In this document: positions 7,731 to 50,844 of the stretch, in pieces | Position numbering within the stretch: position 1 is the first letter of the stretch | How the letters are laid out: the number at the start of each line of letters is the position of its first letter | Source of the DNA: Candidatus Hydrogenedentota bacterium | Lineage (GTDB): Bacteria > Hydrogenedentota > Hydrogenedentia > Hydrogenedentales > SLHB01 | Reading direction: 5' to 3' | Length of the DNA stretch: 64,000 bases | Assembly: GCA_045863295.1 (NCBI GenBank) | Contig: BTWA01000003.1 | Coordinates: forward strand, 115,158-179,157 | Notes under the pieces: generated by a model | The model's database searches: none | Seen by the model: only the letters and a program-made list of their open reading frames with translations | What the model was told of the DNA's origin: nothing | Made by a program: the position numbers and the translations under genes

Positions 7731-7939
7731 CCCGGATATTTCACGACTTTGTCCAATTAACTGTGTACCAACAATTCAATCGGCTTGTTACCAAAACTGG
7801 CGCACCTACAGTGTGCAAGTGAAACATCCTCAGCGTTTCAAGCTCTAGGAATTCTGTGTGAGCAATTTGCACCACGGAGACTGTACTTCAGTCTTCCACG
7901 CACGAATCAAGCGTGGTGCATAATGCGGGTTAGCGCCTC

Positions 7940-22712: not shown

Positions 22713-22727
22713 CGATGCGGTACCTCG

Positions 22728-33648: not shown

Positions 33649-35385
33649 CTAACGTCCCCAACGCTGTATCAAGGGGTGTCGAATCTCGGTGCTCGCGTTA
33701 TCGATGGCTTGGTAGCGCTTCTTTCCTTTGTCGAGGTAGAACGGAATAAAGGCCATCTTTTCAAGGTAGGTGGACCCCGGCTCCACCTGGATAAGGGGAC
33801 CTCGCTGATAGTCGCTAAACGGATAGACAAGGCCGCGGGTGAAGTAGGTGAGGGGGATTTGCCAGAAGTGATGGTAGTACAAATAGAATGCGCGGCGGTG
33901 AAGGGTCGCCTCGCCCCGCTCCACACTGAACGCTTGCGACGATTCGATGGCCGTGCCTACACCGTATCCCTTGGCTTCGTTCGTTAGTGCCAGCCATGGC
34001 ACGTCGTGCTCCACGCGGGTTGCCCATTCATCCTGCCAGTTCGGGCCGTGCATGGTGCGATTGATACGAAGTTTGCCGGTGCGTTCACGCCAGACGAAGT
34101 GGTCCACCAGGTGCGAGTCCAGCACAATTTCACCGTTGCGTATGGCGGAGGCATTCAGCCAGTCCCGTACTTCCAGCACGGTGGTTGTATCAACATACGG
34201 AACGCCCGCATAAAACGTATAGGTGACCGAGGCATACACCTGGGGGGTCCATTCGGGCATGCGCCCGCGATTGGTTACGCGGAACATGAGCGGGCCGCGC
34301 GTGCTGACGGTGGTCTGTTCGGGCGGATCCCAGGCGAATGTGTGCCCCCACTTCCCGTTGTCGGAGAAGGAATCCGGATTCCAATGGACCGCGGCACTCA
34401 TCGAGTTGGTAAGCAGCGGCGCATCCACCTCGTCGCGGCCTTTCAATTGAAACGACGCGATTTGCCCTGACTTGTCGTCGAGATCGACAATGAAGTATTC
34501 GTTCTCCACGACGGCGCCCAGCGATTCTCCCGTCACTTTCATATCGGCCTCGGCCGGCTTCAGGGTCTCTGCGTCTGGATTGTCATAGAGAAACACGTAG
34601 GTCTCTGATTCTTTCGCGTCCACTTTCGCGAAAAAAACCGTATCAACCGACTTGGATGGATGCTTCAAGTAGTCCGTATTGGCGGTACCGGTGGGGGTGC
34701 CTTCAAATTCCTTTGGATTGAACACTTGAAACGGGACGGGAATCAACGCGCCGCTTTCCTTGTCCACACGCACAATGCGAAGCTCCCTGGCAAGATCCGC
34801 ACAATCTTCCGCGCGCACGGCAATAGTACATTCGACCGGCTCATTTTCGCGTGCCAGCCCGGCCTCTTCATGCAATACGACAGATTGATACCGTTTCCAG
34901 CCGGTTGTGACGCCGCCCGTTTCCGGTGCGCGCGCCGCAAACGTCTTCAATACGGTCTGCGATCCGGCTTCATTGGTGTAAGTGATTTGAACGTGGATCT
35001 GTACTTCCTCACCGCTGTGCCAGGCCGAGCGCGTAACCAGGACGACATTTTTTGCTGTGGCGCTATCACGCGTTATCCAACCGGATTGGACGTGAGAGAA
35101 GCCGTCTCTAAAGAGGTAAAATGAATCTGACGCAGTACGGTTTACATGTACGGAGGCAACCGTTGCCGAAGTCCCCTCCGTCCAGTCGCCCAACGGAACG
35201 ACGATTTCGTAGTACGGATACTCCGAGGTTGGCGCGACAAACGTAATCTCATCAACATCTTTTGGGTCGTATGGCGTGTTGTACAGCACATTGCCATCGC
35301 CCACATCGCGGCCCACTTCGACGGAGGCCGGCTTCGCCCACGCGACTGCCGAAATCAGCAACATACTCAGGATTATGCGATGCAT
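33649..35385 (-). CDS. Large secreted protein of unknown function, paralog A
   Basis: Signal peptide MHRIILSMLLISAVAWA. Shares LHE.AGL.RE.EPV, VHWNPD, PW.AL.N..KG.G and LVYPF blocks with the adjacent 35440-37635 protein. Confidence 0.55.
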   Translation of the reverse strand: MHRIILSMLLISAVAWAKPASVEVGRDVGDGNVLYNTPYDPKDVDEITFVAPTSEYPYYEIVVPLGDWTEGTSATVASVHVNRTASDSFYLFRDGFSHVQSGWITRDSATAKNVVLVTRSAWHSGEEVQIHVQITYTNEAGSQTVLKTFAARAPETGGVTTGWKRYQSVVLHEEAGLARENEPVECTIAVRAEDCADLARELRIVRVDKESGALIPVPFQVFNPKEFEGTPTGTANTDYLKHPSKSVDTVFFAKVDAKESETYVFLYDNPDAETLKPAEADMKVTGESLGAVVENEYFIVDLDDKSGQIASFQLKGRDEVDAPLLTNSMSAAVHWNPDSFSDNGKWGHTFAWDPPEQTTVSTRGPLMFRVTNRGRMPEWTPQVYASVTYTFYAGVPYVDTTTVLEVRDWLNASAIRNGEIVLDSHLVDHFVWRERTGKLRINRTMHGPNWQDEWATRVEHDVPWLALTNEAKGYGVGTAIESSQAFSVERGEATLHRRAFYLYYHHFWQIPLTYFTRGLVYPFSDYQRGPLIQVEPGSTYLEKMAFIPFYLDKGKKRYQAIDNASTEIRHPLIQRWGR

Positions 35386-35439
35386 ACATAAACCTCTCAT
35401 AGGGTTGACAGTCATTGTACGGCCACAGCTTCGCGACGA

Positions 35440-37635
35440 TTACTCTTTGTGTTCACTGCCATCTGTTCGGACGCCCACGCCTTCGTCGAACGGCATTGTG
35501 AGAATGGGCATAACCCAAACCGCGGGTGTGCGAGCATCAGTTCCCATCCACTCCGTAATGTCCAGTGGATTGTTCAGCTTGGTGCATAGCACTTTGATAT
35601 CCGCAAAGGGATCATCGCCATTGGCGAAACGGAATGGTACCCATGCCATTCTTTCATAATAAAAGCTGCCCTTACGCACTGGCATCATGCGTGTAAAGTT
35701 CATCCCGCCAAACGGATAAACGAGTGGGCGTGACCAATAGATCCAAGGTCCATTCTGGACGTAGTAGTAGGGTTGAGTGAGGCTGGGTTCCTTGGCATAC
35801 CTATTGCCGCATTCGAAAGCGAGTGAGATTTGCGCAAATCCGACGCCTTTCTCCCGGTTAATCAGTGCCATCCAAGGCGTGTCGGCCGGAATCTCGAGCG
35901 CGTGAATCGGGTGCTTCCGGGACGTCTCAACATCCAGGGTGCCGACATGGCCAAGCGGATCTTGCCAAACAAATTCATTTAACACGGCGTGGTTGAATAC
36001 AAGTTCGCCATTGCGCACCGCCTGAACAAACTGTTCCGCTTGCACTTCCATCAAAGAAGTCATGACAGTGTAAGGCTGTTGAGCATAGAATTCATAGGAA
36101 ACGGCCGCGTGAACATTGTCAATGAATGGCATGGCCGCGTGACGTTCGGTGCGATGCATAATTGGGCCGGTCTTCTGGTCCATTGCGGGCTTTTCCCAAT
36201 CGCTTATGTGGACCCAGGGCTTGGGCGGCGGGTAAAAATCCGGATTCCAGTGTACGGCACCGTTGGTTTCCAGTTTGTGCTCCAATAACACCGGATCCCC
36301 GTTACCCAAAACCGTTACCTGCTCGACAGAGCCGCTGTTCACCGAGAGAAAATACCGGAACCACTTGTTTTCCACCGTCTGGCTCAGACCCTCGCCGCCG
36401 GTGATTTTCAGATCGCTATCATATGCCGGCGCTTCGGCCTTGGGATTTCCATACACGACGTAGTAGATCCGCTCTTCATACGGAAGCACATCCGCCAGAA
36501 ACACTAACTCAACCGTGGTCGTTGCATCGTACCGGTGCAGCCGCTCCTTGGTCTCCGGGTCAATTTCGACAATGGCCAGTACTTTCTCGTCTCGCCAGGT
36601 CTCTACGTTCTTCACCTGCACTGGCGCCATCACGTAGCCGTCGGAGCCAGCCTTTGGATTGGTGGGATCGTAGGTGACTATGCGAATTTCCTTTGCCGGA
36701 TCGGTGATGTCATCGGCAAATAGTCCCAGCGCAAGGTGGACCGGCTCGCCCTCGCGCCGGAGCCCGGCGGTCTCATGCAGCTTAATGGACACAAAATGCG
36801 GCCAGTCGGCATTCCAATAGCCGCCGCTGGCCGGCGCCGTGCCCTCAGCCTCGTACGTCGACTCCGCACCCGACTTGTCTTTCCAAGTGACTTTAACTGC
36901 GTGCTTCGACCCGTTGGTCCAGGTCACCGGGGCCACCACACGAAAATTGCGGTTGCCCCCGATGTGGCCGGTATAGCTTTCTCCTTCGGGAATCTCGGAT
37001 GCGGCCTTTTTCTCCGGGTGCTCCATACCTTCATTAAAGTAGCGCGCATCGCGGTTCCACACGCCGTCCACCTCCACGCGCGTGACCTCGCCGGGCTGTA
37101 CAATTTCCTTGGGCACGTTGAATGTAACATGATGATACGGGAATTCCGGCGAGGGTCCGCCGAATCCTACCGAAGTGGCTCCGTAGGACTCGGGCGCGGC
37201 TGCATTTACCGCGAAGTGCACGGGCGTGCCCTTCTCGCTTGTGCCGTCCACAGCGACTTCGTACGGTTTGCCCGGTTGCCATTGGCTGTAGGCATAGATG
37301 GCGAACGGCTCGGTGCCATGCACGACGCGATGCTTATTCATGATTCCCAGGTTCAGGACAATGAAGCGCTCGGCGGGACTGCCGTTGATGGTGACTTTGT
37401 CCACCTTGAAGGGATCGGTTTTGGGCATGGCGAACTCAGCAACCAGATCGTACGGCATGCGGTCCAGTTGGTTGACGCCTTGAAACTGCAGCGAGTCGGG
37501 TTTGGCGGGTGCGCCGTCTTCCCCGTATCCCGACGGCCGGGGATGCAATACCGGATTAGCCGCGACGGCGGCGGCGCACAGGCAGAAAAACATCGTTGCA
37601 ATGAGCGCATCTCTTAGAATACGCACCTTCCGCAT
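35440..37635 (-). CDS. Large secreted protein of unknown function, paralog B
   Basis: Signal peptide. Conserved C-terminal about 350 aa shared with paralog A. Unique N-terminal about 250 aa. Confidence 0.55.
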   Translation of the reverse strand: MRKVRILRDALIATMFFCLCAAAVAANPVLHPRPSGYGEDGAPAKPDSLQFQGVNQLDRMPYDLVAEFAMPKTDPFKVDKVTINGSPAERFIVLNLGIMNKHRVVHGTEPFAIYAYSQWQPGKPYEVAVDGTSEKGTPVHFAVNAAAPESYGATSVGFGGPSPEFPYHHVTFNVPKEIVQPGEVTRVEVDGVWNRDARYFNEGMEHPEKKAASEIPEGESYTGHIGGNRNFRVVAPVTWTNGSKHAVKVTWKDKSGAESTYEAEGTAPASGGYWNADWPHFVSIKLHETAGLRREGEPVHLALGLFADDITDPAKEIRIVTYDPTNPKAGSDGYVMAPVQVKNVETWRDEKVLAIVEIDPETKERLHRYDATTTVELVFLADVLPYEERIYYVVYGNPKAEAPAYDSDLKITGGEGLSQTVENKWFRYFLSVNSGSVEQVTVLGNGDPVLLEHKLETNGAVHWNPDFYPPPKPWVHISDWEKPAMDQKTGPIMHRTERHAAMPFIDNVHAAVSYEFYAQQPYTVMTSLMEVQAEQFVQAVRNGELVFNHAVLNEFVWQDPLGHVGTLDVETSRKHPIHALEIPADTPWMALINREKGVGFAQISLAFECGNRYAKEPSLTQPYYYVQNGPWIYWSRPLVYPFGGMNFTRMMPVRKGSFYYERMAWVPFRFANGDDPFADIKVLCTKLNNPLDITEWMGTDARTPAVWVMPILTMPFDEGVGVRTDGSEHKE

Positions 37636-37892
37636 GGTGGTTCCTCCCAAGTCGATCGGTCAGTTAAGTGGGTTCGATGCACGCGAACCGCTTCTTGCGC
37701 ACGCATAACCATAGCGCGATGCAAACGCACTGTCAAAGCCCAAACTTGACAGGGGGACCACGGAGAAGCGATACTGTTTTTATTGCGTGGGCGAGTATGG
37801 GCACGCATGCCCGGATAGATTCGATCCGGGTTCTGGTCCGCAGGACCTGCCTTCATTTCATACGGGACCAAACTCCTGCAAGGAGAGTAGTT

Positions 37893-38859: not shown

Positions 38860-40311
38860 ATGTCCGATCCAATTCCGTCTGTTGCCGCCATTCTGATGGC
38901 GGAAGGCGACCCTGACAGAATCCTCCTCGTCCGAAGAAATCTTGTGCTCCGGTTTATGGGGGGATTCCACGTCTTCCCGGGAGGGCGCATCGAAGCTCAG
39001 GAAAGTACGCTGAATGTCGACGCGGCAGACCATGCCGGACACGCGGCCGCGATCCATGCCGTAGCGCGAGAAGTATTCGAGGAGACTGGTATTCTTTGCA
39101 CGCGCGGCCCGAGGCCGCCGGCAGAAGAACTTCACGATATGCGGGTAAAACTATTGGCAGAGGCCATTACGTTTGACGATGTTCTCCTTCGCTCCTCTCT
39201 TCGAATACACGCGGCGGATTTCAGACCTGCGGGCCGCTGGGTTACGCCACCGTTCATGCCTATTCGTTTCGACACACAATACTTTTTGTATAGCTGCGAG
39301 ACGCCGGCCGATGTGCAAATCATTGAAGGCGAAATCATCGACTTTGGTTGGTACTCTCCAGAGGAGGCGCGCACATTGTGGCAGAAGGGAAGCATAAAAC
39401 TGCCGCACCCGGTGGCTTTCGCATTGCGCCAATTGTCGCTTCGCGACCGGCCGGATCTCTTGGACCGGCTCTGTGAGACCTCCGTGAGCAAAGATTCAAG
39501 TATCGGACGCATTGAAACACGCAGAGGAATTCACGTATTACCGCTGGAAACATCGGGCTTGCCCCCGGCCACGCATACGAATTGCGTCCTTGTGGGCGAA
39601 GATGATCTGTTTGTAATCGATCCGGGACCGGGTCCGGGATCTGGGCGTATAGGTTTGCTTGATCAGCTTGACCAACTGTGCCGCAACGGCGCCCGAATAC
39701 ATGCCGTACTGCTCACCCACGGCCACCCCGATCATGTGGGATCAGCGGAATGGGTAAAGGCTCACTGCGGGGCTCCTATATGGGCACACCGGAACACGAG
39801 GCTCAGTTTCGCGCCTGATCGATACCTCGAAGACGGCGACGTGATTCCATTGGCCGGAGATCCGGGATGGCGGCTACGCTGCCTTCACACACCGGGTCAT
39901 GATCCGGGTCATCTCTGCTTTTTCGAAGAGTCCACTCGAACGGTCATTGCGGGGGATTTGGTTTCCGGTCACGGATCCGTGGTCATTGCGCCGGACAACG
40001 GAGGTGAGATGACGGCCTATCTGGCAAGTCTTCGACGCGTACAGGCAATCGCGGCCAAACTGATCATTCCCGCGCACGGATTCCCCATAGGCAAGCCCGA
40101 TGAATTTATCCTGAATACCCTAGACCATCGGCTCACTCGGGAAGCGAGGATAAAGGCCGCCCTGGACGGCGGTCTCGAAACGGAAGAGGCCCTGTTGGCA
40201 GAGGCATACAAGGATGTTCACGAATCGTTGTGGCCGCTGGCGCGACAGAGTCTTCGCGCCCACCTTGCACGTCTGCGGGCGAACACGGTTGAACAAAAAA
40301 GCCCGGATTGA
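38860..40311 (+). CDS. NUDIX hydrolase fused to an MBL-fold metallo-hydrolase
   Basis: NUDIX box GGRIEAQES...REVFEETGI in the N-terminal half. HGHPDHVGS plus downstream His/Asp residues of the metallo-beta-lactamase fold in the C-terminal half. Confidence 0.7.
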   Translation: MSDPIPSVAAILMAEGDPDRILLVRRNLVLRFMGGFHVFPGGRIEAQESTLNVDAADHAGHAAAIHAVAREVFEETGILCTRGPRPPAEELHDMRVKLLAEAITFDDVLLRSSLRIHAADFRPAGRWVTPPFMPIRFDTQYFLYSCETPADVQIIEGEIIDFGWYSPEEARTLWQKGSIKLPHPVAFALRQLSLRDRPDLLDRLCETSVSKDSSIGRIETRRGIHVLPLETSGLPPATHTNCVLVGEDDLFVIDPGPGPGSGRIGLLDQLDQLCRNGARIHAVLLTHGHPDHVGSAEWVKAHCGAPIWAHRNTRLSFAPDRYLEDGDVIPLAGDPGWRLRCLHTPGHDPGHLCFFEESTRTVIAGDLVSGHGSVVIAPDNGGEMTAYLASLRRVQAIAAKLIIPAHGFPIGKPDEFILNTLDHRLTREARIKAALDGGLETEEALLAEAYKDVHESLWPLARQSLRAHLARLRANTVEQKSPD

Positions 40312-40353
40312 TCGTCAATCCGGGCTTGTCCTGGCCAACGACTTGTTCTTACC

Positions 40354-42495
40354 TCACGACGGCGCCGGCACGGGTTCCGCAGCCGGCAACTCGGGCGCGG
40401 GCGCCGAGCTTTCATCCAATACCGGTGTCAAGGGGCGGCTGCCGCGGCGGCCTTGGAACATGAGCAAATCGCCATCGATTGCGAGTTCGAACTGCTGCCC
40501 GCCGATGTCCATTTTTACTTTGCCATCGATAACCTCGTATTTACCTTTCGGGCCGCGATTGAAGATCACGACGCCGTCTTCCTTGAAGTCAAGGCGCATT
40601 CGGTCACCGCGGCGCCATGTCGTACCAACAATGGTTTGTGCATCCAACATGATACCGGTATGAATGATAGGCTCATCCGGCTGTTGGCGGCGTTCGCGGG
40701 GCGGGTTCTGAGCGACTATTGGCGAGTCCGGATCGAAGGTGTACATCATGTAGCCGATAAACATTTCCTCGTACGTCTGTTCGCCAAAGTACACCGTCGC
40801 CGAGGGATCGGGATTTTGCGGGTTGCGCGGGGAGTTGTCAAACGCTCCGGTCGCAATGATGCGCGTGCCACCCGGCAAATGCTTTGGCTCTTTTAGTTGG
40901 TATAACGTTTGCCAATTGAAATCGTAGTTGGGCACGGACAGCAACACTTCCGACGTACCGTCGGGATACTGCGCCTCATACTGAAAGCGCTTGCCACGGT
41001 AGTGCATGTGCGGCGACATTGCCCACAAGACCGAATCACGTTCTATCAGGTGGCCGGCCTCAGTGGGGGCATCGTGACTTCCCGCAGGAATTTCAAAACG
41101 GGTATTGGATGCGGCACGCGTGGCCAGCACGCGATCCGGCACGCCTTCGTGAAAATAAAGGGCCATTTGCGGCCGATCGATTTCTTCTTTGCCGGTAGCG
41201 GTGTAGTGCAGTTGGAAATAGAACTTGGTGCCGGCCGGCAGGTATTTGCCCGAATTCTCGGGGAATGCGTGTGGCTCCATACCGGGCACGTATCCCGCGA
41301 AGAAACCGTTCAAGCCGCTGTCCGGATCGGTCTGCTGGTCTTGCTTTTCCGGTGGAAACAGCTCAAACACCAGTATATGGTGCGCGACTTCACGGTTGCT
41401 CGGCCGCACTTCGACCGCACGAACCCACTTGTCTTCCTCTAAGCCCGAAGGCACTTCAATGTAACGGTAGTCAAAGACGCCGGTGGACGATACCTGCTGG
41501 TCTTCCGGTAGTGATATCACCATATCCGGCTCGCCCAATTTCCATTCCGTCACGGGCATATCGGCCACGGATTCCAGCGGATCGATTTCTCCGTCGGCCG
41601 GCGAGCCCGCATCGATCCAGGCGACAAACTTCCGCAATTCGGCCGGAGTCAGAGCGCGATCATTTCCGAATTCGCCATGCTTGGGATCGGCGTGCCAAGG
41701 CGGCATCCGTTTGGACATCACCGCCTCCTTGATGGTGGGACCCCACGTTTTTACGCGCTGATGGCTTGAGAATGAAAATGGACCCACGTTGCCGGGGCTG
41801 TGACACGCAACACACTTGCCCTGCACAATGGGCACGATATCCTGCGTGTACGATACGTCTTTCACCGCCGCCGCAAAGAAGATTTTGCAGCCCTTCACCG
41901 GCGTTGACTTGACCTTGATCTCCTCGCCCTTCAGCAGCGCCTGGATTGCATCGTCCAGCCAGGTTTCGGTGGGCTCGGGTTTACGGGCCGTATAGTCGAT
42001 GCTGTCGTCGATCGCCCCGCGGTAGAGAATTGCCCAATCCTTTGGATTGATTAGGATGGCTTCGCAGGTCCGCTCGACGCCAAGCGACTTCACCACCAAT
42101 TGCGCTTCATCAAGCAGGATGGGGATATCTATGCCGAATTCCTTCGCTTCGCTCGCCACGTCTTCCCGTGTGTCGAGCGGGTTGCCGTTCAACATAAGGA
42201 AAACGACGCCCTCGGGGGCATATTTGTCACGCAGGGCTTTCAAAGCCGGCACGCTTTTTTGCGCAATCGGGCAGCCATTACCCGTGGTATACAGCACAAT
42301 GGCTTTTGAATCCGCTCCGTACCGGTGCAACTCATGCGACTGACCGAGATGATCCATGAGCCGGAAATTCTCGGCCTTCGCGGGTTTGGCGGTTTCGGCG
42401 GGCGTTTCGCTGTCGTGCTGCGCCCATGCGTACGAAACCATCACTCCAATGGCCAGAAAGGTTCCGGCAACTCCGAAAACAACTGCGCGAATCAT
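40354..42495 (-). CDS. Redoxin-like / planctomycete cytochrome c (CxxCH) / type-II copper monooxygenase (PHM/DBH-like) three-domain secreted protein, paralog 1
   Basis: Signal peptide. Thioredoxin-fold block (no CxxC). CVACHSPGNVGPF...RMPPWHAD...FVAWIDAG PSCyt-like haem domain. Cu sites HHILVF...QLHY (H-H...H) and PHMHYRG...EEMFIGYMMY (H-x-H...M). Confidence 0.7.
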   Translation of the reverse strand: MIRAVVFGVAGTFLAIGVMVSYAWAQHDSETPAETAKPAKAENFRLMDHLGQSHELHRYGADSKAIVLYTTGNGCPIAQKSVPALKALRDKYAPEGVVFLMLNGNPLDTREDVASEAKEFGIDIPILLDEAQLVVKSLGVERTCEAILINPKDWAILYRGAIDDSIDYTARKPEPTETWLDDAIQALLKGEEIKVKSTPVKGCKIFFAAAVKDVSYTQDIVPIVQGKCVACHSPGNVGPFSFSSHQRVKTWGPTIKEAVMSKRMPPWHADPKHGEFGNDRALTPAELRKFVAWIDAGSPADGEIDPLESVADMPVTEWKLGEPDMVISLPEDQQVSSTGVFDYRYIEVPSGLEEDKWVRAVEVRPSNREVAHHILVFELFPPEKQDQQTDPDSGLNGFFAGYVPGMEPHAFPENSGKYLPAGTKFYFQLHYTATGKEEIDRPQMALYFHEGVPDRVLATRAASNTRFEIPAGSHDAPTEAGHLIERDSVLWAMSPHMHYRGKRFQYEAQYPDGTSEVLLSVPNYDFNWQTLYQLKEPKHLPGGTRIIATGAFDNSPRNPQNPDPSATVYFGEQTYEEMFIGYMMYTFDPDSPIVAQNPPRERRQQPDEPIIHTGIMLDAQTIVGTTWRRGDRMRLDFKEDGVVIFNRGPKGKYEVIDGKVKMDIGGQQFELAIDGDLLMFQGRRGSRPLTPVLDESSAPAPELPAAEPVPAPS

Positions 42496-42531
42496 GGCCC
42501 ACTCCCTGGTTACGCTTGTGGCATCCAACGC

Positions 42532-44547
42532 CTATTGGATACGCGGTACTGGCTCGCCGTCATCATACGTCAACTGATCGCCGTTGATTAAAAGGTCGTA
42601 TTCATTCCCCAACACTTTCATTACAACACGCTGTCCGTCAAACCACCAGCGGCCGCGGATGCCTTTGTTCACCTGAAGCTTGCCTTCCGCGTTGAATGTG
42701 AATTTGTAGCGGCCGCTTTGCCAGACCGTGCCGACAATATTTTCCTCGGTGATGGGAATTCCCGTGCGGATGGATTCAATTACTTCCTTCTCTTTATCCA
42801 CCTTTACCGGTGCGTCGGGATCAAACGAGTAGTCCAGATACCCAATGAACATCTCGTCGAACGTCTGGTCGCCAAAATACACCGTTGTCGTCGGATCCGG
42901 GTTGTTTGGATTGCGCACTGAATTGTCGAATCCGCCGGAGGCATGAATTACCGTGCCGGCCGGTAGCTTCTTCGGTTTCTGCAATTCGTAGATGTGCTGC
43001 CAATTGAAGTCATAGGCAGGCACCGACAACAACAGCTCGCGCTTGCCGTTGGGGTACTCGGCTTCGTACTTGAACCACTTGCCGCGAAGGTGCATGTGGG
43101 GAATCAGTTTGTGCAACGTGGCGTCGCGGTCGACCGTAAACTCCGCCGTGGTCGTGCTGTTGTAGTCGCCCGGCAGAATCTCAAAATCGATATTGTTCGC
43201 CGCGCGGGTCACAAACTCCCTCGCAGGCGGCGTATCGTGAAAATATAGCGCCATTTGAGTACGTTCATGCTCTTCCTTGCCAGTCGCGGTGTAGTGATTC
43301 TGAAAAACAAAACGGGATCCGGCAGGCAAGAACTTGCCGGAATCCTTGGGATATACCTGGGGATGGAACCCCGGTACATAGCCCGCGAAGAATCCCTCCA
43401 ATCCGCCGTCGTTATCGTCGTCTTCGTCATCGTCCTCATTTTCGCGCCGGTTGGGTTCGCTGAGAAATACCAGCACGTGGTGAGTTACTTGCCGGTTGTT
43501 CGTGCGCACTTCGACCGCGCGCACCCACTTGTCTTCCGTAAGTCCGGAAGGCACGCCAAAGTAGCGATAGTCGAATACACCCGACGCGGGTATCACTTGA
43601 TCCTCGGGCAATTCGACCAGCAAGTCCGGTTCACCAAGCGACCACGCCGGCATTTCCATGTCTTCCACCGCTTCGAGCGGATCGACATCGCCATCCTTGG
43701 GCGCGCCCGCATCAAGCCATGCAAGCACGGTGCGGGTTTCCTTCGCAGACAAATCCCGCGCATTCGAAAATGCCCCAACCTCTTCGTCCGCGTGCCACGG
43801 CGGCATACGTTGAGTCATCAGGACTTCTTCGATCATCGGGCCCCAGGTTTGTACGCGGCGATGGCTGGAGAAACTGAATGGGCCAATATTGCCCGGACTG
43901 TGGCAACTTACACACTTGTTCTCGATGATCGGAACAATGTCGTTGACATACGAAACCTCTTGAGGCAACGGCTGGTACTTGATGGCCGTACCGTTGCTGG
44001 CTTCGCCTGACGTCACTTCTTTCCCTGCGATTACGGCCTCCAAAGCCGCCTTTAGCCCTGCTGCGGCACCACGATAGACAATTCCGCACTCTTTAGGTTC
44101 CACCACCAGGGCCTCTCCATTGCGCTCGAAGCCAAGACGGCGGGAGACCATTTGCGATTCGTCCATCAGAATTGGCAATGCCACACCCGCATCCGCAACG
44201 ATGTCGGCCACGTGACCGCGCTTTTCCCGCTTGTTCGCGTCCAGAAAAAGGAAGACTACGCCTTGTTGGCCCAGTTCCTGGTGAAGGGCATTCAAGTTGG
44301 GCAGGTCAGCGCGAGACGTGTCGCACTTGGTCGAGAAGGAGTAGATAACAATGGCTTTCGCATCGGCGCAGTAGCGTGAAAGTTGATGCGCCTCGCCGTT
44401 CTGATCAATTAATAGGAAATCAGGGGCTTTGTTTGGCTTTACGCCGGGGTCGGCCTGTTCAACGTTTTGCCCCGCGGCAGTCAGAGCCAGCACCATCGTC
44501 AGCAGCACGTTCGTCACCCAAATCTTTCCAGCAAACCTTGACCGCAT
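42532..44547 (-). CDS. Redoxin-like / cytochrome c / PHM-like copper monooxygenase three-domain protein, paralog 2
   Basis: Same architecture. CVSCHSPGNIGPF...RMPPWHAD. THHVLVF...QNHY and PHMHLRG...DEMFIGYLDY. AAGAGG SD 9 nt upstream of the chosen ATG (44547). Confidence 0.7.
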   Translation of the reverse strand: MRSRFAGKIWVTNVLLTMVLALTAAGQNVEQADPGVKPNKAPDFLLIDQNGEAHQLSRYCADAKAIVIYSFSTKCDTSRADLPNLNALHQELGQQGVVFLFLDANKREKRGHVADIVADAGVALPILMDESQMVSRRLGFERNGEALVVEPKECGIVYRGAAAGLKAALEAVIAGKEVTSGEASNGTAIKYQPLPQEVSYVNDIVPIIENKCVSCHSPGNIGPFSFSSHRRVQTWGPMIEEVLMTQRMPPWHADEEVGAFSNARDLSAKETRTVLAWLDAGAPKDGDVDPLEAVEDMEMPAWSLGEPDLLVELPEDQVIPASGVFDYRYFGVPSGLTEDKWVRAVEVRTNNRQVTHHVLVFLSEPNRRENEDDDEDDDNDGGLEGFFAGYVPGFHPQVYPKDSGKFLPAGSRFVFQNHYTATGKEEHERTQMALYFHDTPPAREFVTRAANNIDFEILPGDYNSTTTAEFTVDRDATLHKLIPHMHLRGKWFKYEAEYPNGKRELLLSVPAYDFNWQHIYELQKPKKLPAGTVIHASGGFDNSVRNPNNPDPTTTVYFGDQTFDEMFIGYLDYSFDPDAPVKVDKEKEVIESIRTGIPITEENIVGTVWQSGRYKFTFNAEGKLQVNKGIRGRWWFDGQRVVMKVLGNEYDLLINGDQLTYDDGEPVPRIQ

Positions 44548-44949
44548 GATAGCCATCCTCTTGTCATTACCTACCGGTGGGTACGAATTCGCTTGACAGG
44601 CTCCCTTCGAAGGAACCCCTGTCGACCGGATTGGCACAACCTCGCACAAATTCGAATTGCATGGATATTCGGCAATCGGCACATCGCGCAGAAATGCCGC
44701 AAATTACTGATACGAATACCTTTACGGAATAAGCTCCGTTCACCATGAGAGCGGGGGCGACCATGCCACTACGAGGCCGGTCCCCGCCAAGCTACGACGA
44801 TTCCACAGCTAGACGATACACGATACTGGTCTTTTTGACAAGGTACAAGAAACAGTCCTGCCCTTCACTTCCATGCATTCATTGGACGCAGGAAACCAAG
44901 TAAAGGTTTGGAAAATTTTGGAGTGATTGCCACAAACACGTGTGGATAG

Positions 44950-45825
44950 TCAGTCGCCGATGCCAACAAGCGTGAGCGCTCTGGATATGGCTTCAAACCG
45001 GGCCGGCAGATATCCGGCCGGGTCCCCGTCCACCTGCATGGGGACGGGGCTGTTCGATGCGCTGCTCAGTTCGACCACCGCGCCCTTTATGTAAGTTATC
45101 GACCGCAATGATGTGAAACCGGGGAAAAACGCGCGAAGCGCGAGCCAGGCGAGTCGCAGCGGTCGCGGCTCACGAATGATGCAAACATCCAGCAGGCCGT
45201 CATCAGTAACGGCCGCGGGCGTGAACGGGATGATTCCGGCCGTGTACCTGCAGTTGCCGATGATGACATAGCCCGCATTTGATTCAATCTCCATTCCATC
45301 CACGACAACACGAATAGGAGCGGGCTCGAATGTGAATGCCGTCTTCAGCGTGGGCAGAATCCATGCGAGCAGTCCGAGTTTCTTGCCCCGGTGTGCATGA
45401 ATTACATTCACCACGGCGGCATCGAATCCAGCGCCGGCTCCCATCAAGAAGCGATGTCCGTTGGCGGATCCCAAATCCAGAACGCGGCGCTTTCCGGACA
45501 CAATCCTCTCCGCCAGGACAGCGGGATCGCGCGAAAGCCCATACTCCCGTGCAACGACGTTCGCGGTACCCAATGGCAGTATGGCGAGCGGCACGGCGGT
45601 CCCCGTGAAGCCGTTTACGACTTCGTTGGCCGTGCCGTCTCCGCCAACGGATGCCACGCAGTCGTAGCCATGGGCGGCAGCCGCGGACCGCGCATCGCCC
45701 TGGGCTCGGGTAATCACCGTGTGCGTATCCGCACCGCGACTCCGAAGCTCGCGAGCAAGCTGGTTTGCCGTGAATTCGCCTTTGCCGCCGCCGGCGATGG
45801 GATTGGCAATAATCAGTACGTTCAC
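44950..45825 (-). CDS. Diacylglycerol kinase catalytic-domain family lipid kinase (YegS/DagK-like)
   Basis: NPIAGGGKG...VGGDGTANEV...LPLGTANVVA motifs. Confidence 0.75.
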   Translation of the reverse strand: MNVLIIANPIAGGGKGEFTANQLARELRSRGADTHTVITRAQGDARSAAAAHGYDCVASVGGDGTANEVVNGFTGTAVPLAILPLGTANVVAREYGLSRDPAVLAERIVSGKRRVLDLGSANGHRFLMGAGAGFDAAVVNVIHAHRGKKLGLLAWILPTLKTAFTFEPAPIRVVVDGMEIESNAGYVIIGNCRYTAGIIPFTPAAVTDDGLLDVCIIREPRPLRLAWLALRAFFPGFTSLRSITYIKGAVVELSSASNSPVPMQVDGDPAGYLPARFEAISRALTLVGIGD

Positions 45826-45952: not shown

Positions 45953-46777
45953 CTAACGATCCAGCTTGGCCAATTCCTGAAAGAACCAATCCTGTGCTGG
46001 AAATCTCGTATTCATTTTCAAGTAAGCGGTGTGGCCGTCCAGATACACTACATGGATGCCTGTTGAATGATTCCCCGGCCGCTCTATCAACACGGGGATT
46101 TCCGCAGGCGTGGAATCACCCTCGGGCTCCAACCGCAATCGGCGCACGGTTGCGCTGCCGCCCCGCGCGCCAAACTGCGATATCAGGTCGCCGTGAAACG
46201 ACTCGCCCACGGATATCTGTTTTCGGTACGCCTGAAAAAAGGCGCGCGCCTGTTGCGGATTGGCAATTTCATACCCAAAGTAAAAATACGACCGATCATG
46301 ACATTGGACAGGAGGTATGCGTTGGCCGTCCCGGTGCGGTTCGTTCGGACAGGAAAACACCGTCCTGTTGCCATCAAGGCCGGACATCTCCACGGCGGGG
46401 TCGAGTGTAAAATCACCGGCAAAAGACGAAACCGGGGGCAATAGGCCGCCGTTTGCATCCGCCCACTGGGTACAGGCAAGGGCGATGAGAATCATGTTGT
46501 TTTGGCAGGTCGATCGCCGAGCAGGCTCAAGATTAGAGGAAAAGGACGACGTTAAGAGCACCGTGCCAATGATCATGCCCAGGATAATGAAACCCGCGGA
46601 ATAAACAAACGCTTGGCGATCGGCCCATGCGGATTGACCGTTCACGGATTCCGCCGGCGCCGGGCGCCTTGCAATGCGACCTTCTCGCGGTGTTTGACGG
46701 TTCAAGCCACGTTCGCTCGCTTTTCGGAACCCGCACAAACGGTTCGGTACGCCACATACCCCAGTTGGCCGAAACAA
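45953..46777 (-). CDS. DUF1559 (H-X9-DG) domain protein with a degenerate prepilin-like N-terminus
   Basis: C-terminal HSTGIHVVYLDGHTAYL H-X9-DG motif and C.NN...ALA...Y block. The N-terminal hydrophobic helix lacks the GFxxxE prepilin signature. True start uncertain. Confidence 0.6.
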   Translation of the reverse strand: MFRPTGVCGVPNRLCGFRKASERGLNRQTPREGRIARRPAPAESVNGQSAWADRQAFVYSAGFIILGMIIGTVLLTSSFSSNLEPARRSTCQNNMILIALACTQWADANGGLLPPVSSFAGDFTLDPAVEMSGLDGNRTVFSCPNEPHRDGQRIPPVQCHDRSYFYFGYEIANPQQARAFFQAYRKQISVGESFHGDLISQFGARGGSATVRRLRLEPEGDSTPAEIPVLIERPGNHSTGIHVVYLDGHTAYLKMNTRFPAQDWFFQELAKLDR

Positions 46778-46782
46778 CGCGT

Positions 46783-47166
46783 TTAATTCAATGCGTGGGG
46801 AAACAACAACTCGAACGCGCCAATATCCACCTCAAATTCCGCGCCATCGTCCCGGCGCATTGTATACGCACCTTCCATGGTGCCATACGATGTATGGAGC
46901 GGACAGGCGCTCATGTACTCGAAGTGGCGGCCGGGCTCGATGTAGGGCTGTTCTCCAACAACACCTTCGCCTTTGACTTCCTTTTCTTCGCCCAGGGCGT
47001 CCGTGATCACCCAATGGCGTCGCACAAGCTTTGCCGGTTCGTCACCCTCGTTGATTATCTGTATCCGATAGGCAAAAAAGAACCGGTGCTCCGAGGGATT
47101 GGACCGGTCTGGAACGTAGAAGCTCTCAGTGATAACCCGAATGCTTTGTGTGACTGTATCTGACAT
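46783..47166 (-). CDS. apaG: ApaG (DUF525) protein
   Basis: FFFAYRIQIINEGDEPAKLVRRHWVITDALGEEKEVKGEGVVGEQP matches the ApaG family. Confidence 0.7.
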   Translation of the reverse strand: MSDTVTQSIRVITESFYVPDRSNPSEHRFFFAYRIQIINEGDEPAKLVRRHWVITDALGEEKEVKGEGVVGEQPYIEPGRHFEYMSACPLHTSYGTMEGAYTMRRDDGAEFEVDIGAFELLFPHALN

Positions 47167-47249
47167 TTCTTGCCTGCAACCCAATGGAGTATGTCTCTAC
47201 ACCATATTCTATCAGAAGGGGTTGGGGGAGGCACAAGCGGAAGGGCGGG

Positions 47250-47837
47250 TCAGATCGTGCCGCGCCGCCGGAAACCGGGATCGCGGTAGGCGGCCCGTAA
47301 CGCGTTGGAAACGCTTTCAATCTGTGCTTCCAGGTCGGTTACGTCCTTGGATTCAGGATCCACTTTGCGGGCGGCCTCGGCCTGTTCCTTGCACTTTTGC
47401 ACTAATGCTTCAATGAGCGTGAACGGATTGAGCCCTGACGGTGCGCCGTTGTCGAGTATGAACAACAACTGACGCAGATGAACTTTCGCAATGTCGATGT
47501 GGCAAATGAGTTCAAAGTATTGGCTGGAAAACCGGGGTATAGGGCTGGGGCCGCCCGTTCGCTTATAAATCGCCAGCGCGGTCTCAAGCTCGCCTTGAGC
47601 CACCATCAGCCAGCGGTTGTCCGAAGAACTCAAGTAACACCAGCCAAGGTAATAGTGGCCCCCAGCGTGGTGAGGCTGTTCCAGGAGTAGTTGTTTCAGA
47701 ATTGGGATGGCTTCGTCGAAACGTGTTTCAAGGCACAGGTATTCCGCTTCAGCCAGCAGATCCCGTTTCGGTTGTGACTGACAAGCGGCGGCCCCAATCG
47801 CTATCAGGACCGCCGCCGTAACTCTCTTAATTGCCAT
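47250..47837 (-). CDS. TPR-like lipoprotein
   Basis: Lipobox IGAAAC. HYYLGWCYL TPR-like helix pair. Confidence 0.5.
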   Translation of the reverse strand: MAIKRVTAAVLIAIGAAACQSQPKRDLLAEAEYLCLETRFDEAIPILKQLLLEQPHHAGGHYYLGWCYLSSSDNRWLMVAQGELETALAIYKRTGGPSPIPRFSSQYFELICHIDIAKVHLRQLLFILDNGAPSGLNPFTLIEALVQKCKEQAEAARKVDPESKDVTDLEAQIESVSNALRAAYRDPGFRRRGTI

Positions 47838-49215
47838 TGTTCCAACGAGGCTGGATACGGAAGAATCCGGTGCGTGGCCCAAACCGGCAGAATACCGTGA
47901 TCTCCGTGGGCTTCGCTTCGGTCACTTTCGCGAGCGCTGCCTCGAACTCTTCAATCGTGGTAACCGGATGCCCCCCGAAATTCATGATAATCATGCCCGC
48001 GCGCAATCCGGCAAGCTGGCCATAACTGCCGGACTCAACCCGCCGGATAATGACGCCTTGAACATCGTTGCTCAAATTGAGCATGAGCCTGACATCCGTC
48101 GTCAGTTCCCGCACAGTCAGCCCAAATACTGTGTCTTCGAATTCCACGGCGTCTCGCGAGGACTTGGGCCGTTCGGTTAACGTCACCGACACGTCCATCG
48201 GCGCACCTTCGCGAAGCAGCTTCACGGGAACAGCTTTGCCGATTCCCGCGTCGCGTATTACCTTGGTAAAGGCCAGGATCTCCCGATCCAGTTTTGCACG
48301 TACAGGAATCTCATTAAATGTCGTGATAACGTCGCCTGCCTGAAGCCCGGCCACGGCGGCCGGCGAGTCGGCAATGACGGTGCTGACCACCACGCCTCCT
48401 TCTTTGGGCAGGTTCCAGTATTCAGCCATGTCATCCGTTAAAGGCTGTGTAAACACGCCGAGAAACGCGTCGTCTTCCTGCGCATCCAGTGTTTCCTTGC
48501 CGGGAGGATTGTCGATGTAGTGTTGAAACAAAGCCGACTGATAGACAAGGGGATGGCCGCTGCGGATGTACAAATCGCCGCCCTCGTTCGTGGAAAGGTC
48601 AAACCCAACCACGCCGACAACATTGCCGGATGCGTTCACCACAGGCCCCCCGACGTAACCGAACACAATCCGTTCGTCGAGGCAATAGGTGCGGCGCGGC
48701 TTTTCAAGCACGGCCGTCACCCGGCGTTCGACAATCGAAGTGGTGTAATCAAGGCTTTCGCCCATCAAACCGATGATCAAGAGCGGTTCGCCCAGATCGA
48801 GGCCGCCCGGCGCAAATCGAACATGCGGCAGATTCAAGGCTTCGTTGGAAACAATCCGAAGAAAGCAGACGTTAATATCCTCCGGTTTCCGAAGCGCCTC
48901 TGCGTCGTATTCGCGCTCGCTTTCCCCTTGCCCTACAACTACCTTGATATTGAACGGCTGGGAATTCTCGAGTTGCATGTGGCCATGCGCCATGACCAGC
49001 CCATCCGCGCTCACGATGAGTCCCGCGGCTCGCGTGTTGCGCTTGCTGACCTGGCCCGACGCCGGATTCGTCACTTCCGACGAATACGTGATCATGCACA
49101 CAGACGGCGCAACTTTGTCGTAACTCGACGCAACAAACTCCTGGGAAAACACTTGCGCACCGCTCACTGCCGCGAGGGCAAGGCATAGGGTCAGTCCGAC
49201 GATGCTACTTCTCAT
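47827..49215 (-). CDS. HtrA/DegP-like trypsin-fold serine protease with two PDZ domains
   Basis: Signal peptide, trypsin-like core and two PDZ-like C-terminal domains (GLQAGDVI, GLRAGMII). Confidence 0.7.
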   Translation of the reverse strand: MRSSIVGLTLCLALAAVSGAQVFSQEFVASSYDKVAPSVCMITYSSEVTNPASGQVSKRNTRAAGLIVSADGLVMAHGHMQLENSQPFNIKVVVGQGESEREYDAEALRKPEDINVCFLRIVSNEALNLPHVRFAPGGLDLGEPLLIIGLMGESLDYTTSIVERRVTAVLEKPRRTYCLDERIVFGYVGGPVVNASGNVVGVVGFDLSTNEGGDLYIRSGHPLVYQSALFQHYIDNPPGKETLDAQEDDAFLGVFTQPLTDDMAEYWNLPKEGGVVVSTVIADSPAAVAGLQAGDVITTFNEIPVRAKLDREILAFTKVIRDAGIGKAVPVKLLREGAPMDVSVTLTERPKSSRDAVEFEDTVFGLTVRELTTDVRLMLNLSNDVQGVIIRRVESGSYGQLAGLRAGMIIMNFGGHPVTTIEEFEAALAKVTEAKPTEITVFCRFGPRTGFFRIQPRWNNGN

Positions 49216-50605
49216 TCAATTGATCTCCCGGCACAGTCGCTGGCACTTCCGCTTGATCCGCGGCGTCCGCCTCGGCTTCTTCTTCGCCTTCTGCCACCTG
49301 CTTCACGAGCACAAATCGAATCAGCGATCCGCGCTTGACCGTCAGCATTGTCAGTTTTGTCTTCTGTTCGACCCGTTGGGTATACATCTCTTTGAAACCG
49401 CTGAGCGAGGGTACTTCCACCCCGTCTACCGTGAGAATGATGTCGCCTTCGCGTAGACCGGCATTGGCCGCCAGCCCGCCCACCTGCACGCCGGACACAT
49501 AAACGCCCTGTCGTGTCGGCAACTGTGCACGCCGCACCATTTCCGGTGTAAGCTCCGCAAGTGTAAACGCCCACTCGCCCAACTCTTCTTCATCGCCACG
49601 CATGTCGCTGCGTTCGATGGTCGTCGCGGGGATATCCACTTCTTCGCCGGCGCGCCGGACTCGAACTTGAGCTTCCGCGCCTACCGGCAAATCCGCGATG
49701 GCCTTTTCAACCGCCGGCAACGCTTCCTCAAATCGGGCGTGTACGGGTGCCCCGTTTAACGCGACAAGGATGTCGCCCGGGCGAATACCCGCATCGGCCG
49801 CCGGCGATAGCGGATCGACGTCGGCAATCACCACACCCTGCACTTTGGGATCGTCCGTAACGCTGGTCATTGGCTGCAACATCAAGCCCAGCCAACTCCG
49901 TATCACCCGCCCGTCCGCGATGATCTCTTCCACCACTTCGCGTGCGATATCCACGGGAATGGCAAACCCAATGTTGTCCGCGCCGCCCAGTTTGCGTGTA
50001 TTGACGCCAACCACCTCGCCGCGCAAGTTGACCAGCGGCCCTCCACTATTGCCCTGGTTGATGGCCGCGTCGGTCTGAATCCACGTGTTGTACGGGGAAA
50101 TCGTCTCCCCGCTTTCGCCCAGATACCGATCGGTCACACTCACAATGCCGCTCGACACGGACCGCGCAAGACCATGGGGACTACCCAGCGCCAGCACTGT
50201 CTGGCCCGTTTGAAGTGACGACGATTTGCCAAACGGCACGGTCGGGAGGTTATTCCGCTCCGACTCGATCTTGAGCACGGCTATATCCGTATAGCGATCG
50301 GTGCCGACAACTTGTGCGTCCACTTCTTCCCGGTTGGACAACACGCATCGGACAAGGTTGCTATCACCGGCAACGTGCTCGTTGGTAACCACGTAACCGT
50401 CACTCGAAATGATAAATCCGCTGCCAAGCACAACCATGCCCTCGCGGCGCCCGCCGGAAAACACTTCCTTCACCGGACGAATATGTACGATGGCTGGAAG
50501 AACGTTATCTTTTGCGCGAATGACCGCGCGTTCCGACGACGACCCCACGGTGGCGCATCCTGCGCCTAGCACGCATAGGGCGAGTACGACCGCTGTTTGT
50601 TTCAA
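49205..50605 (-). CDS. HtrA/DegP family serine protease lipoprotein with two PDZ domains
   Basis: Catalytic triad context TNEHV, DIAVLKI, GNSGGPL. Lipobox LGAGC. Probable TTG start at 50605 with an AAGGAG SD 7 nt upstream. Confidence 0.75.
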   Translation of the reverse strand: MKQTAVVLALCVLGAGCATVGSSSERAVIRAKDNVLPAIVHIRPVKEVFSGGRREGMVVLGSGFIISSDGYVVTNEHVAGDSNLVRCVLSNREEVDAQVVGTDRYTDIAVLKIESERNNLPTVPFGKSSSLQTGQTVLALGSPHGLARSVSSGIVSVTDRYLGESGETISPYNTWIQTDAAINQGNSGGPLVNLRGEVVGVNTRKLGGADNIGFAIPVDIAREVVEEIIADGRVIRSWLGLMLQPMTSVTDDPKVQGVVIADVDPLSPAADAGIRPGDILVALNGAPVHARFEEALPAVEKAIADLPVGAEAQVRVRRAGEEVDIPATTIERSDMRGDEEELGEWAFTLAELTPEMVRRAQLPTRQGVYVSGVQVGGLAANAGLREGDIILTVDGVEVPSLSGFKEMYTQRVEQKTKLTMLTVKRGSLIRFVLVKQVAEGEEEAEADAADQAEVPATVPGDQLNEK

Positions 50606-50844
50606 ACCAATGCTCCTTGCCGTGTGGCGACCGGTTGGCCCCACGCACTCCTGACCAGGCGAAACCATGACCGTCATGGAAGACGCGCCATTATACAGAC
50701 GCGCCCGCACCGGACAAACCATGCCGGGCGGGGTGCTATTCCATTCGTCCAAGCGCTAAAATCATGTCACGGCGAGGCCGGGTCACGCGCGACCCCTGCC
50801 CCGGCCGCAAACCGCCACAGGATACCTTACAACCGGAGCGCACA

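Follow-up and report, generated by a model that had tools for sequence, protein, structure and literature searches.

What does a bacterial protein do that joins a thioredoxin-like domain, a c-type cytochrome and a copper domain of the kind found in animal monooxygenases? The question is raised by two adjacent paralogous genes, here called protB (upstream) and protA (downstream), in a stretch of 64,000 nucleotides (hereafter, the window) from a Candidatus Hydrogenedentota bacterium (contig BTWA01000003.1 of assembly GCA_045863295.1, positions 115,158 to 179,157). An initial annotation had described their products as fusions of a redoxin-like domain, a planctomycete-type cytochrome domain and a copper domain resembling those of peptidylglycine alpha-hydroxylating monooxygenase (PHM) and dopamine beta-hydroxylase (DBH). 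Together with tyramine beta-monooxygenase (TBM), these are the textbook ascorbate-dependent animal enzymes. The three-module fusion is real, as seen in Pfam matches, AlphaFold2 models and motifs, but the planctomycete origin is not, since the NCBI record assigns the sequence to a metagenome-assembled genome (MAG) of Candidatus Hydrogenedentota. From the N- to the C-terminus, both proteins have a signal peptide, a redoxin domain, a monohaem cytochrome c domain, a two-lobed copper domain of the PHM/DBH type and a small beta domain that had been overlooked. The reading that we favour, and regard as rather probable from these sequence features, is that they are Sec-exported periplasmic hydroxylases that would activate O2, with a tethered haem c in the role that ascorbate plays as reductant, and with variable ends and paralogs tuning specificity or protection.

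The fold of the copper domain carries much of this reading. AlphaFold2 models were computed from alignments of 66 full-length homologues, and reached a mean predicted local distance difference test (pLDDT) of 89.3 and a predicted template modelling (pTM) score of 0.82 for protA, and of 91.2 and 0.88 for protB. They contain a thioredoxin fold, a three-helix haem domain, two beta-sandwiches and the small C-terminal beta domain. When the whole model was compared with the PDB using Foldseek, the top match was rat PHM (E 2.9e-14, 279-297 columns, target TM-score 0.60-0.65). Human DBH was also retrieved, and the 60 best matches included only the PHM/DBH-type and thioredoxin-like fold classes. Profile alignments led to the same fold. 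A profile of 24 copper-domain sequences was aligned by hhalign to rat PHM, whose sequence is identical to 1opm_A, with an E-value of 4.7e-4, and to a profile of 23 animal PHM sequences with a probability of 92.5% and an E-value of 4.7e-7 over 228 columns.

Both hhalign alignments have the same register, in which VAHH(383,384)ILVF corresponds to TVHH(107,108)MLLF, FQLH(441)Y to LQVH(172)Y, PH(507)MH(509)YRG to VH(242)TH(244)HLG, and EEM(589)F to DEM(314)C (residues of protA are numbered in its 724-aa open reading frame (ORF), those of protB in the 671-aa protein). The six His/Met ligands are thus positionally equivalent to those of PHM, as had been claimed. H383, H384 and H441 of protA and H356, H357 and H418 of protB match the CuH ligands H107, H108 and H172, while H507, H509 and M589 of protA and H484, H486 and M566 of protB match the CuM ligands H242, H244 and M314. 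The identities of these ligands in PHM, and the distance of 11 Å between its two coppers, are taken from a recent review (PMC12164859). All the motifs quoted in the initial annotation were found in the proteins, namely HHILVF, QLHY, PHMHYRG and EEMFIGY in protA, HHVLVF, QNHY, PHMHLRG and DEMFIGY in protB, and CxxCH...MPPW in both. An unrelated fold or non-equivalent ligands, named beforehand as the outcomes that would overturn the assignment, are not what these comparisons returned.

To see how far these features extend, we looked at their conservation in two sets. Among the 66 full-length homologues, the invariant positions include C86 in the redoxin domain, C239, C242 and H243 together with M275-P-P-W278 in the haem domain, and H383/H384, H441, H507/H509 and M589 in the copper domain. 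A second, cross-phylum set comprised 95 cytochrome-copper regions from 82 loci. There, the CuH ligands and the CxxCH motif are present in 95/95 regions, the CuM ligands in 94-95, and the haem Met in 94. Q439 of protA, the equivalent of PHM Q170, is kept in 89 of the 95 members. R511 in the CuM subdomain is also invariant, and the family has invariant motifs of its own: MPPWHAD, WxxGxPD, PHMHxRG, YDFNWQxxY and FDNSxxNxxNPDP. Both proteins are predicted to bind copper and haem.

The haem domain has the features of a class I c-type cytochrome, with C239xxC242H243, a distal Met (M275) and a signal-like N-terminus on the protein. The attachment of c-type haem requires an extracytoplasmic location, and the N-terminal signal-like sequences of both proteins, judged by sequence inspection and by the AlphaFold2 helices (residues 6-35 in protA and 2-25 in protB) rather than by a predictor, suggest that they are exported. 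The domain had been labelled PSCyt-type, a label that stands only as a faint resemblance. The Pfam model PSCyt1 (PF07635) gives no match to it even at E<=10, while a true PSCyt1-PSCyt2-PSD1 protein encoded at 22728..25811 of the window, used as a control, scores 62.6 bits with the same model. We therefore rejected membership in PSCyt1. Conversely, a hidden Markov model (HMM) of the family's haem domain has PSCyt1 proteins as its sole non-family matches below E 0.01 (E 2.7e-4 to 9e-3). These matches fall in the haem helix and in the C-terminal W-I-x-x-G-A helix, and the two groups have in common the pattern [FY]xxD[IV]xPIxxxKCxxCH ... MPP ... LxxxExxxxxxWIxxGA, although PSCyt1 proteins have other partner domains. 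The control protein (1027 aa) adjoins a DUF1501 protein (492 aa) at 21234..25811 on the minus strand, a gene pair typical of Planctomycetota and Verrucomicrobiota that is here found in a Hydrogenedentota MAG.

Which of the modules belong together was best seen in the wider family. We parsed 125 family ORFs with HMMs for four modules. The haem domain is placed directly upstream of the copper domain in all 124 ORFs where a haem domain is detectable. The redoxin domain accompanies this pair in 63 of the 125 ORFs, and is missing from 61, in which only cytochrome and copper are present; the 51 copies from Acidobacteriota all belong here, as do those from Nitrospirales. Hence, the invariant unit is haem c plus the copper domain. 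The C-terminal beta domain is rarer still: it was found in 9 of the 63 redoxin-bearing ORFs, i.e., in all eight copies labelled Hydrogenedentota and in one from a MAG labelled Nitrospiraceae. The redoxin and C-terminal beta domains are lineage-variable add-ons outside the conserved core. The divergence between protA and protB follows the same division, with 59-61% identity in the cytochrome and copper domains, 39% in the redoxin domain and 30% in the C-terminal domain. The latter is modelled in protA with seven strands between residues 637 and 691 and 10-residue means of pLDDT of 87-96 over residues 621 to 690. The final ~90-120 residues have no Pfam match in protA and chance-level matches only (E>0.1) in protB.

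We propose that catalysis takes place in a PHM/DBH-type core, a non-coupled two-copper monooxygenase to which its own c-type haem domain is covalently joined on the N-terminal side. In PHM, two single electrons per turnover enter at CuH and are used at CuM for the activation of O2 and the hydroxylation of a C-H bond, with ascorbate as the reductant (PMC12164859). In the bacterial proteins, the fused haem would replace ascorbate. A periplasmic one-electron donor, for instance a soluble cytochrome c or the respiratory chain, would first reduce the haem, which would then hand single electrons to CuH (His3: H383, H384, H441). From there they would be relayed to CuM (His2Met: H507, H509, M589), where O2 would be activated and a C-H bond of the bound substrate hydroxylated. 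The redoxin and C-terminal beta domains might serve to bind the substrate, to handle copper or to carry out thiol or peroxide reactions. Haem attachment, copper loading, the direction of electron flow and O2-dependent hydroxylation are all predictions of this model, and the substrate is probably not a peptide with a C-terminal glycine.

Several observations weigh against this reading. The Pfam model Cu2_monoox_C (PF03712) scores 22.0 bits in protA and 17.8 in protB, both below its cut-off of 23. The CuH subdomain of protA, when isolated, has Cu2_monooxygen (PF01082, like PF03712 of clan CL0612) as its sole match, with an E-value of 0.078 and 13.6 bits for a cut-off of 30. The haem domain of protA, also taken as an isolated segment, matches Cytochrome_CBB3 with an E-value of 3.9e-5 and 24.3 bits, below the cut-off of 27. 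A search of the PDB sequences (E<=10) with the copper-domain profile did not retrieve PHM and gave only chance matches to S-layer proteins, which indicates that the homology is remote (15-18% identity). The residues that anchor the substrate in PHM are not kept, the equivalent of R240 being M, S, L or T and that of N316 being I, F or V. The gene context offers no clue to the substrate. Finally, a haem c that feeds two coppers in His3 and His2Met sites would suit a reductase or oxidase of a small molecule just as well.

The last point leads to the most serious alternative, a haem c-fed two-copper reductase or oxidase of O2, H2O2, superoxide or nitrite that serves in detoxification or respiration and hydroxylates no organic substrate. 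It would use metal sites and a haem identical to those of the hydroxylase that we propose, and cytochrome c-fused copper nitrite reductases are a precedent for a haem c that feeds copper sites. The AhpC/TSA-type domain, which keeps a Cys at the peroxidatic position, a conserved Arg (R153) and C214 in 57 of 66 homologues, would fit a role in oxidative stress, but half of the family does without this domain, and it lacks the Thr of the TxxC motif. Crystals of PHM with nitrite, azide or peroxide at CuM are recorded in PDB titles, and no conserved neighbour supplies a substrate or uses a product. On the other hand, the nearest structural relatives are by a wide margin C-H hydroxylases, the CuM Met and the relay residue equivalent to Q170 are conserved, and ancient arrays in which as many as 6 diverged paralogs keep orthologous positions (see below) are better explained by many substrates than by one small molecule. 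We consider this alternative unlikely. A second case of such electron delivery is the cytochrome domain of cellobiose dehydrogenase (CDH), which feeds lytic polysaccharide monooxygenases (LPMOs). The fused nitrite reductases and the CDH-LPMO system are analogues of the proteins studied here, in that a haem domain, tethered or as a partner, gives single electrons to an extracytoplasmic catalytic copper, but their folds are unrelated and their copper sites are different (type 1 and type 2 cupredoxin sites in the former, a histidine brace in the latter).

The similarity to PHM could also be taken literally. The bacterial proteins would then be functional orthologues that hydroxylate the C-terminal glycine of secreted peptides, for instance in an amidation resembling that of RiPPs (peptides made by the ribosome and modified after translation). 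PHM (PDB 1phm, 1opm, 1sdw) has the same two jelly-rolls, three His at CuH, His-x-His plus Met at CuM, and a Gln beside the third CuH His. The periplasmic or secreted location would be compatible with such a function, and Y593, aligned with PHM Y318, is aromatic in most members. However, of the eight Cys columns that the PHM family conserves, and that we take to form PHM's disulfides, the bacterial copper domain has none. The replaced anchors include R240, which binds the substrate carboxylate in PHM (PMC12164859), and their loss led us to reject a true peptidylglycine specificity. No PAL/NHL lyase, precursor-peptide or peptide-export gene recurs beside members of the family. The bacterial family thus forms a deep branch of its own, as the named homologues retrieved with rat PHM are all animal proteins. 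Metal ligands that are kept while anchors and Cys columns are absent point to metal centres of the PHM type rather than to an orthologue, and we find the latter very improbable. Other differences from PHM concern the setting: the animal enzyme works in the secretory pathway and uses ascorbate, while the bacterial protein is fused to haem c, devoid of a PAL partner, and presumably periplasmic and ascorbate-independent. DBH, TBM and MOXD1 (PDB 4zel) are likewise multidomain proteins with an N-terminal accessory domain. DBH is eukaryotic and depends on ascorbate. It has a DOMON and a dimerisation domain instead of redoxin and cytochrome c (PMC12164859).

Could the redoxin domain instead be the functional unit, as a thiol-disulfide oxidoreductase or peroxiredoxin, with the remainder of the protein a non-catalytic region for binding or scaffolding? 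Database names would suggest so. NCBI and JGI call the family members "redoxin domain-containing protein" or "peroxiredoxin" (other source records have "hypothetical protein"), and only the AhpC-TSA/Redoxin models of Pfam exceed their cut-offs (39.8 and 45.0 bits in the two proteins, for a cut-off of 26), with the sub-threshold cytochrome and copper models following in the expected order. The domain combines a thioredoxin fold with a Pfam match above the cut-off, and double jelly-rolls of the PNGase F type can be non-redox (PMC8812541). The usual active-site motifs are nevertheless missing. The CxxC motif is absent, as had been noted, being GNGC in protA, STKC in protB and [G/A/S]xxC in 66/66 homologues. 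The invariant C86 of this motif, the single invariant Cys of the domain, had been overlooked. The RTPE segment of 2cvb has become RT[A/C]E, with loss of the cis-Pro, and the Thr of the peroxiredoxin TxxC is missing. With CxxC and the cis-Pro absent, the domain looks neither like a classical thiol-disulfide oxidoreductase nor like a canonical peroxiredoxin. A second Cys, C214, occurs in 57/66 homologues and is a Thr in protB; it is a possible partner of C86, and the domain may use one-Cys or C86-C214 chemistry. The closest structural homologues, the peroxiredoxin-like TTHA0593 (2cvb), SMc02350 (3u5r) and GK (2ywi), have the C-terminal GC[T/S/K]I motif in common with it, but they keep CxxC (CNHCP) and RTPE with its cis-Pro, and are stand-alone and uncharacterised.

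The redoxin domain is also the most diverged of the large domains, and invariant metal ligands and haem motif would be unexpected in a mere scaffold. Given the loss of active-site motifs, the divergence, and the absence from half of the family, we rejected peroxiredoxin or thiol-disulfide oxidoreductase activity as the main function, and see hardly any chance that the redoxin domain is the functional unit. For the same reasons, it is unlikely to be an obligatory link of the electron chain, in which the initial annotation had included it. The chain that we propose runs from haem c to CuH and CuM.

We then assessed the size of the family. A word-indexed search identified 1,598 homologues (E<=1e-5) among 8,000 scored candidates. 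When 1.84 billion representatives were all scanned by HMMER with the copper-domain profile, 13,711 clusters (50% identity) were found at E<=1e-3, of which 8,610 were at E<=1e-10 and 3,064 at E<=1e-30. A scan of GTDB species genomes resulted in at least 597 confirmed stretches, and 80 loci were kept for analysis. The family is present in at least 10 phyla, the kept loci being labelled in their MAG records as Verrucomicrobiota, Planctomycetota, Acidobacteriota, Hydrogenedentota, Nitrospirota, Gammaproteobacteria, Armatimonadota, Myxococcota, Latescibacterota, Gemmatimonadota and Omnitrophota. Relatives of Planctomicrobium, Chloracidobacterium, Armatimonas and Bythopirellula are among the carriers, and a Chloracidobacterium-type protein of 415 aa is an example of a minimal cytochrome-copper member. 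PF03712 is precomputed in databases on several homologues, and NCBIfam has no model for the cytochrome-copper core, with only far-sub-threshold matches of ResA/TlpA-like models on the redoxin part. The initial annotation knew of no characterised enzyme with this architecture, and our search agrees: we found no study of a bacterial PHM-like or cytochrome-fused enzyme in the full-text literature searched, which does not cover subscription-only papers. In a survey of double jelly-roll folds from 2022, PHM is still presented as its clan's eukaryotic branch (PMC8812541), and a review of PHM from 2025 does not mention bacterial relatives (PMC12164859).

Tandem copies are not peculiar to this locus but a habit of the whole family. 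At least two copies within 10 kb were found in 17 of 83 loci. Blastocatellia loci have as many as 6 copies in an array, and a crude neighbour-joining tree shows the array positions to be orthologous from one species to another. This expansion, into which the pair in the window fits, suggests a diversification of substrates. The Acidobacteriota arrays (L052, L066, L077, L060, L048, L059, L078, L069 and L071) lie at ~3-12 kb of their loci, have 4-6 consecutive cytochrome-copper paralogs within the sequence covered and come mainly from Blastocatellia and Chloracidobacterium. In several of their copies, the CuH subdomain contains a long insertion that splits the HMM matches into two copper stretches ("cu-cu"). 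One cytochrome-copper member, at 6988..8712 (+) of L066, ends in a DUF3471 domain and scores 28.6 bits with Cu2_monoox_C, whose cut-off is 23. In some members, a C-terminal DUF3471 replaces the beta domain of the Hydrogenedentota type. Another protein of the copper-domain scan, P0135 (1251 aa), has two copper stretches in one chain and might have arisen by fusion of two tandem copies.

These results lead to a broader proposal, which we advance tentatively, as plausible but less than probable. PHM/DBH-type enzymes would not be a eukaryotic invention but the tip of a periplasmic family in bacteria that spans at least 10 phyla and numbers over 13,000 clusters, freed from ascorbate by a haem c that draws on the respiratory cytochrome pool, and diversified in arrays of up to 6 for extracytoplasmic substrates. 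The novelty would be PHM/DBH chemistry with a new module for electron entry, in a new cellular setting, and in a very large and unexplored bacterial radiation. If correct, the proposal would relocate the evolutionary origin of the enzyme class. Carbon turnover by bacteria, in Verrucomicrobiota, Planctomycetota, Acidobacteriota, Hydrogenedentota and others, would gain a new kind of copper oxygenase that works outside the cytoplasm. The proposal would also provide a system that is free of ascorbate by nature, in which the passage of electrons from CuH to CuM could be settled, with bearing on the disputed model of open-to-closed gating and on the role of ascorbate other than as reductant, as electrons could be made to enter via a spectroscopically visible haem. 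Finally, thousands of annotations as "redoxin family protein" or "peroxiredoxin", which now name the proteins after their most dispensable domain, would be corrected.

Returning to the window, the coordinates of the gene pair and of its domains are given in Table 1. The head-to-tail ORFs extend over 40354..42528 (724 aa) and 42532..44682 (716 aa). The likely starts are ATG codons preceded by a ribosome-binding site, AGGGAG 7 nt upstream in protA and AAGAGG 9 nt upstream in protB. They agree with the NCBI gene models, the product of AMXMBFR84_06550 being 100% identical to protA, and reproduce the gene coordinates of the initial annotation. Its estimate of about 50% identity between the paralogs is close to the 47% that we measured over 689 aa. 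The 36 nt between the stop codon of protB and the start of protA make co-transcription probable. With this short spacing and a hairpin after protA, the two diverged paralogs appear to form an operon of their own. A third paralog, P0055 (AMXMBFR84_46940, 633 aa), is encoded in the same MAG outside the window. It is 51% identical to protA over 75% of its length, and has no precomputed Pfam domain.

Table 1. Position of the paralogous genes, their encoded domains and the terminator in the window.
Feature	Coordinates	Strand	Remarks
protB, upstream paralog	42532..44547	-	671 aa from ATG 44547; NCBI AMXMBFR84_06560
protB redoxin domain, residues 35-193	43969..44445	-	Pfam AhpC-TSA E 1.3e-11; motif STKC75; alignments
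protB cytochrome c domain, residues 194-293	43669..43968	-	C212-x-x-C215-H216; M248-P-P-W
protB PHM-like copper domain, residues 294-577	42817..43668	-	CuH H356, H357, H418; CuM H484, H486, M566
protB C-terminal small beta domain, ~residues 605-665	42553..42735	-	AlphaFold2 strands between residues 608 and 660
protA, downstream paralog	40354..42495	-	713 aa from ATG 42495; NCBI AMXMBFR84_06550
protA signal peptide MIRAVVFGVAGTFLAIGVMVSYAWA/Q, residues 12-36	42421..42495	-	Hydrophobic core then AWA-Q (sequence inspection)
protA redoxin domain, residues 46-220	41869..42393	-	Motif GNGC86P
protA monohaem cytochrome c domain, residues 221-320	41569..41868	-	C239-x-x-C242-H243; M275-P-P-W-H-A-D
protA CuH (N-terminal) jelly-roll, residues 321-465	41134..41568	-	H383, H384, H441; hhalign
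protA CuM (C-terminal) jelly-roll, residues 466-600	40729..41133	-	H507, H509, M589; Pfam Cu2_monoox_C 22.0 bits, hhalign
protA C-terminal small beta domain, ~residues 631-700	40429..40638	-	AlphaFold2
Hairpin terminator, 13-bp stem then T-run	40299..40327	-	Just past the protA stop, on the side of the convergent NUDIX-MBL gene

The neighbourhood of the pair had been called unusual. Its glycosyltransferase (GT2), its fusion of a NUDIX and a metallo-beta-lactamase (MBL) domain and its two large secreted paralogs are all real, but they are not conserved with the family. As they are not found near the homologues, we rejected them as functional partners. We clustered the 741 ORFs located within 6 kb of family members in 82 loci, and no neighbour family recurs in more than 6 of these loci. 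The largest cluster was discarded as an artefact of antisense ORFs, and the real ones, present in at most 6 loci, are PPDK, enoyl-CoA hydratase, DUF1501, sulfatase, a luciferase-like monooxygenase, Amidohydro_2 and GFO/IDH. For the most part, their recurrence is due to synteny within a single order. The contexts of two homologues on long contigs are unrelated to that of the window. Hence, as no neighbour family recurs, the enzyme is self-contained.

One of these neighbours is a weak lead. An Amidohydro_2 (PF04909) protein with a twin-arginine translocation signal, e.g., at 784..2073 (+) of L066, flanks Blastocatellia arrays and one Planctomycetaceae locus (L039, L052, L059, L077). The Amidohydro_2 family includes aromatic-acid decarboxylases and lactonases, so that these neighbours hint at aromatic substrates.

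The other genes around the pair are listed here for completeness. Upstream are a DUF1559 (prepilin-like, SBP_bac_10) protein and a lipid kinase of the YegS/DAGK type, encoded on the minus strand at 45953..46777 and 44950..45825, followed further out by ApaG (46783..47184) and two HtrA-like PDZ proteases (47827..50752, the second called from sequence only). None of them is conserved with the family in the sampled loci. On the other side, the NUDIX-MBL fusion (38860..40311, +, 483 aa) also has a winged-helix domain and is convergent with protA; weak relatives of it occur near family genes in two other loci only (L035 and L045). The large secreted-looking paralogs at 33649..35415 (-) and 35440..37650 (-) are in tandem, have 588 and 736 aa, and are 30% identical over 563 aa (E 9e-60), without any Pfam match. 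An additional ORF of 736 aa, also without a Pfam match, is located at 1081..3291 (+).

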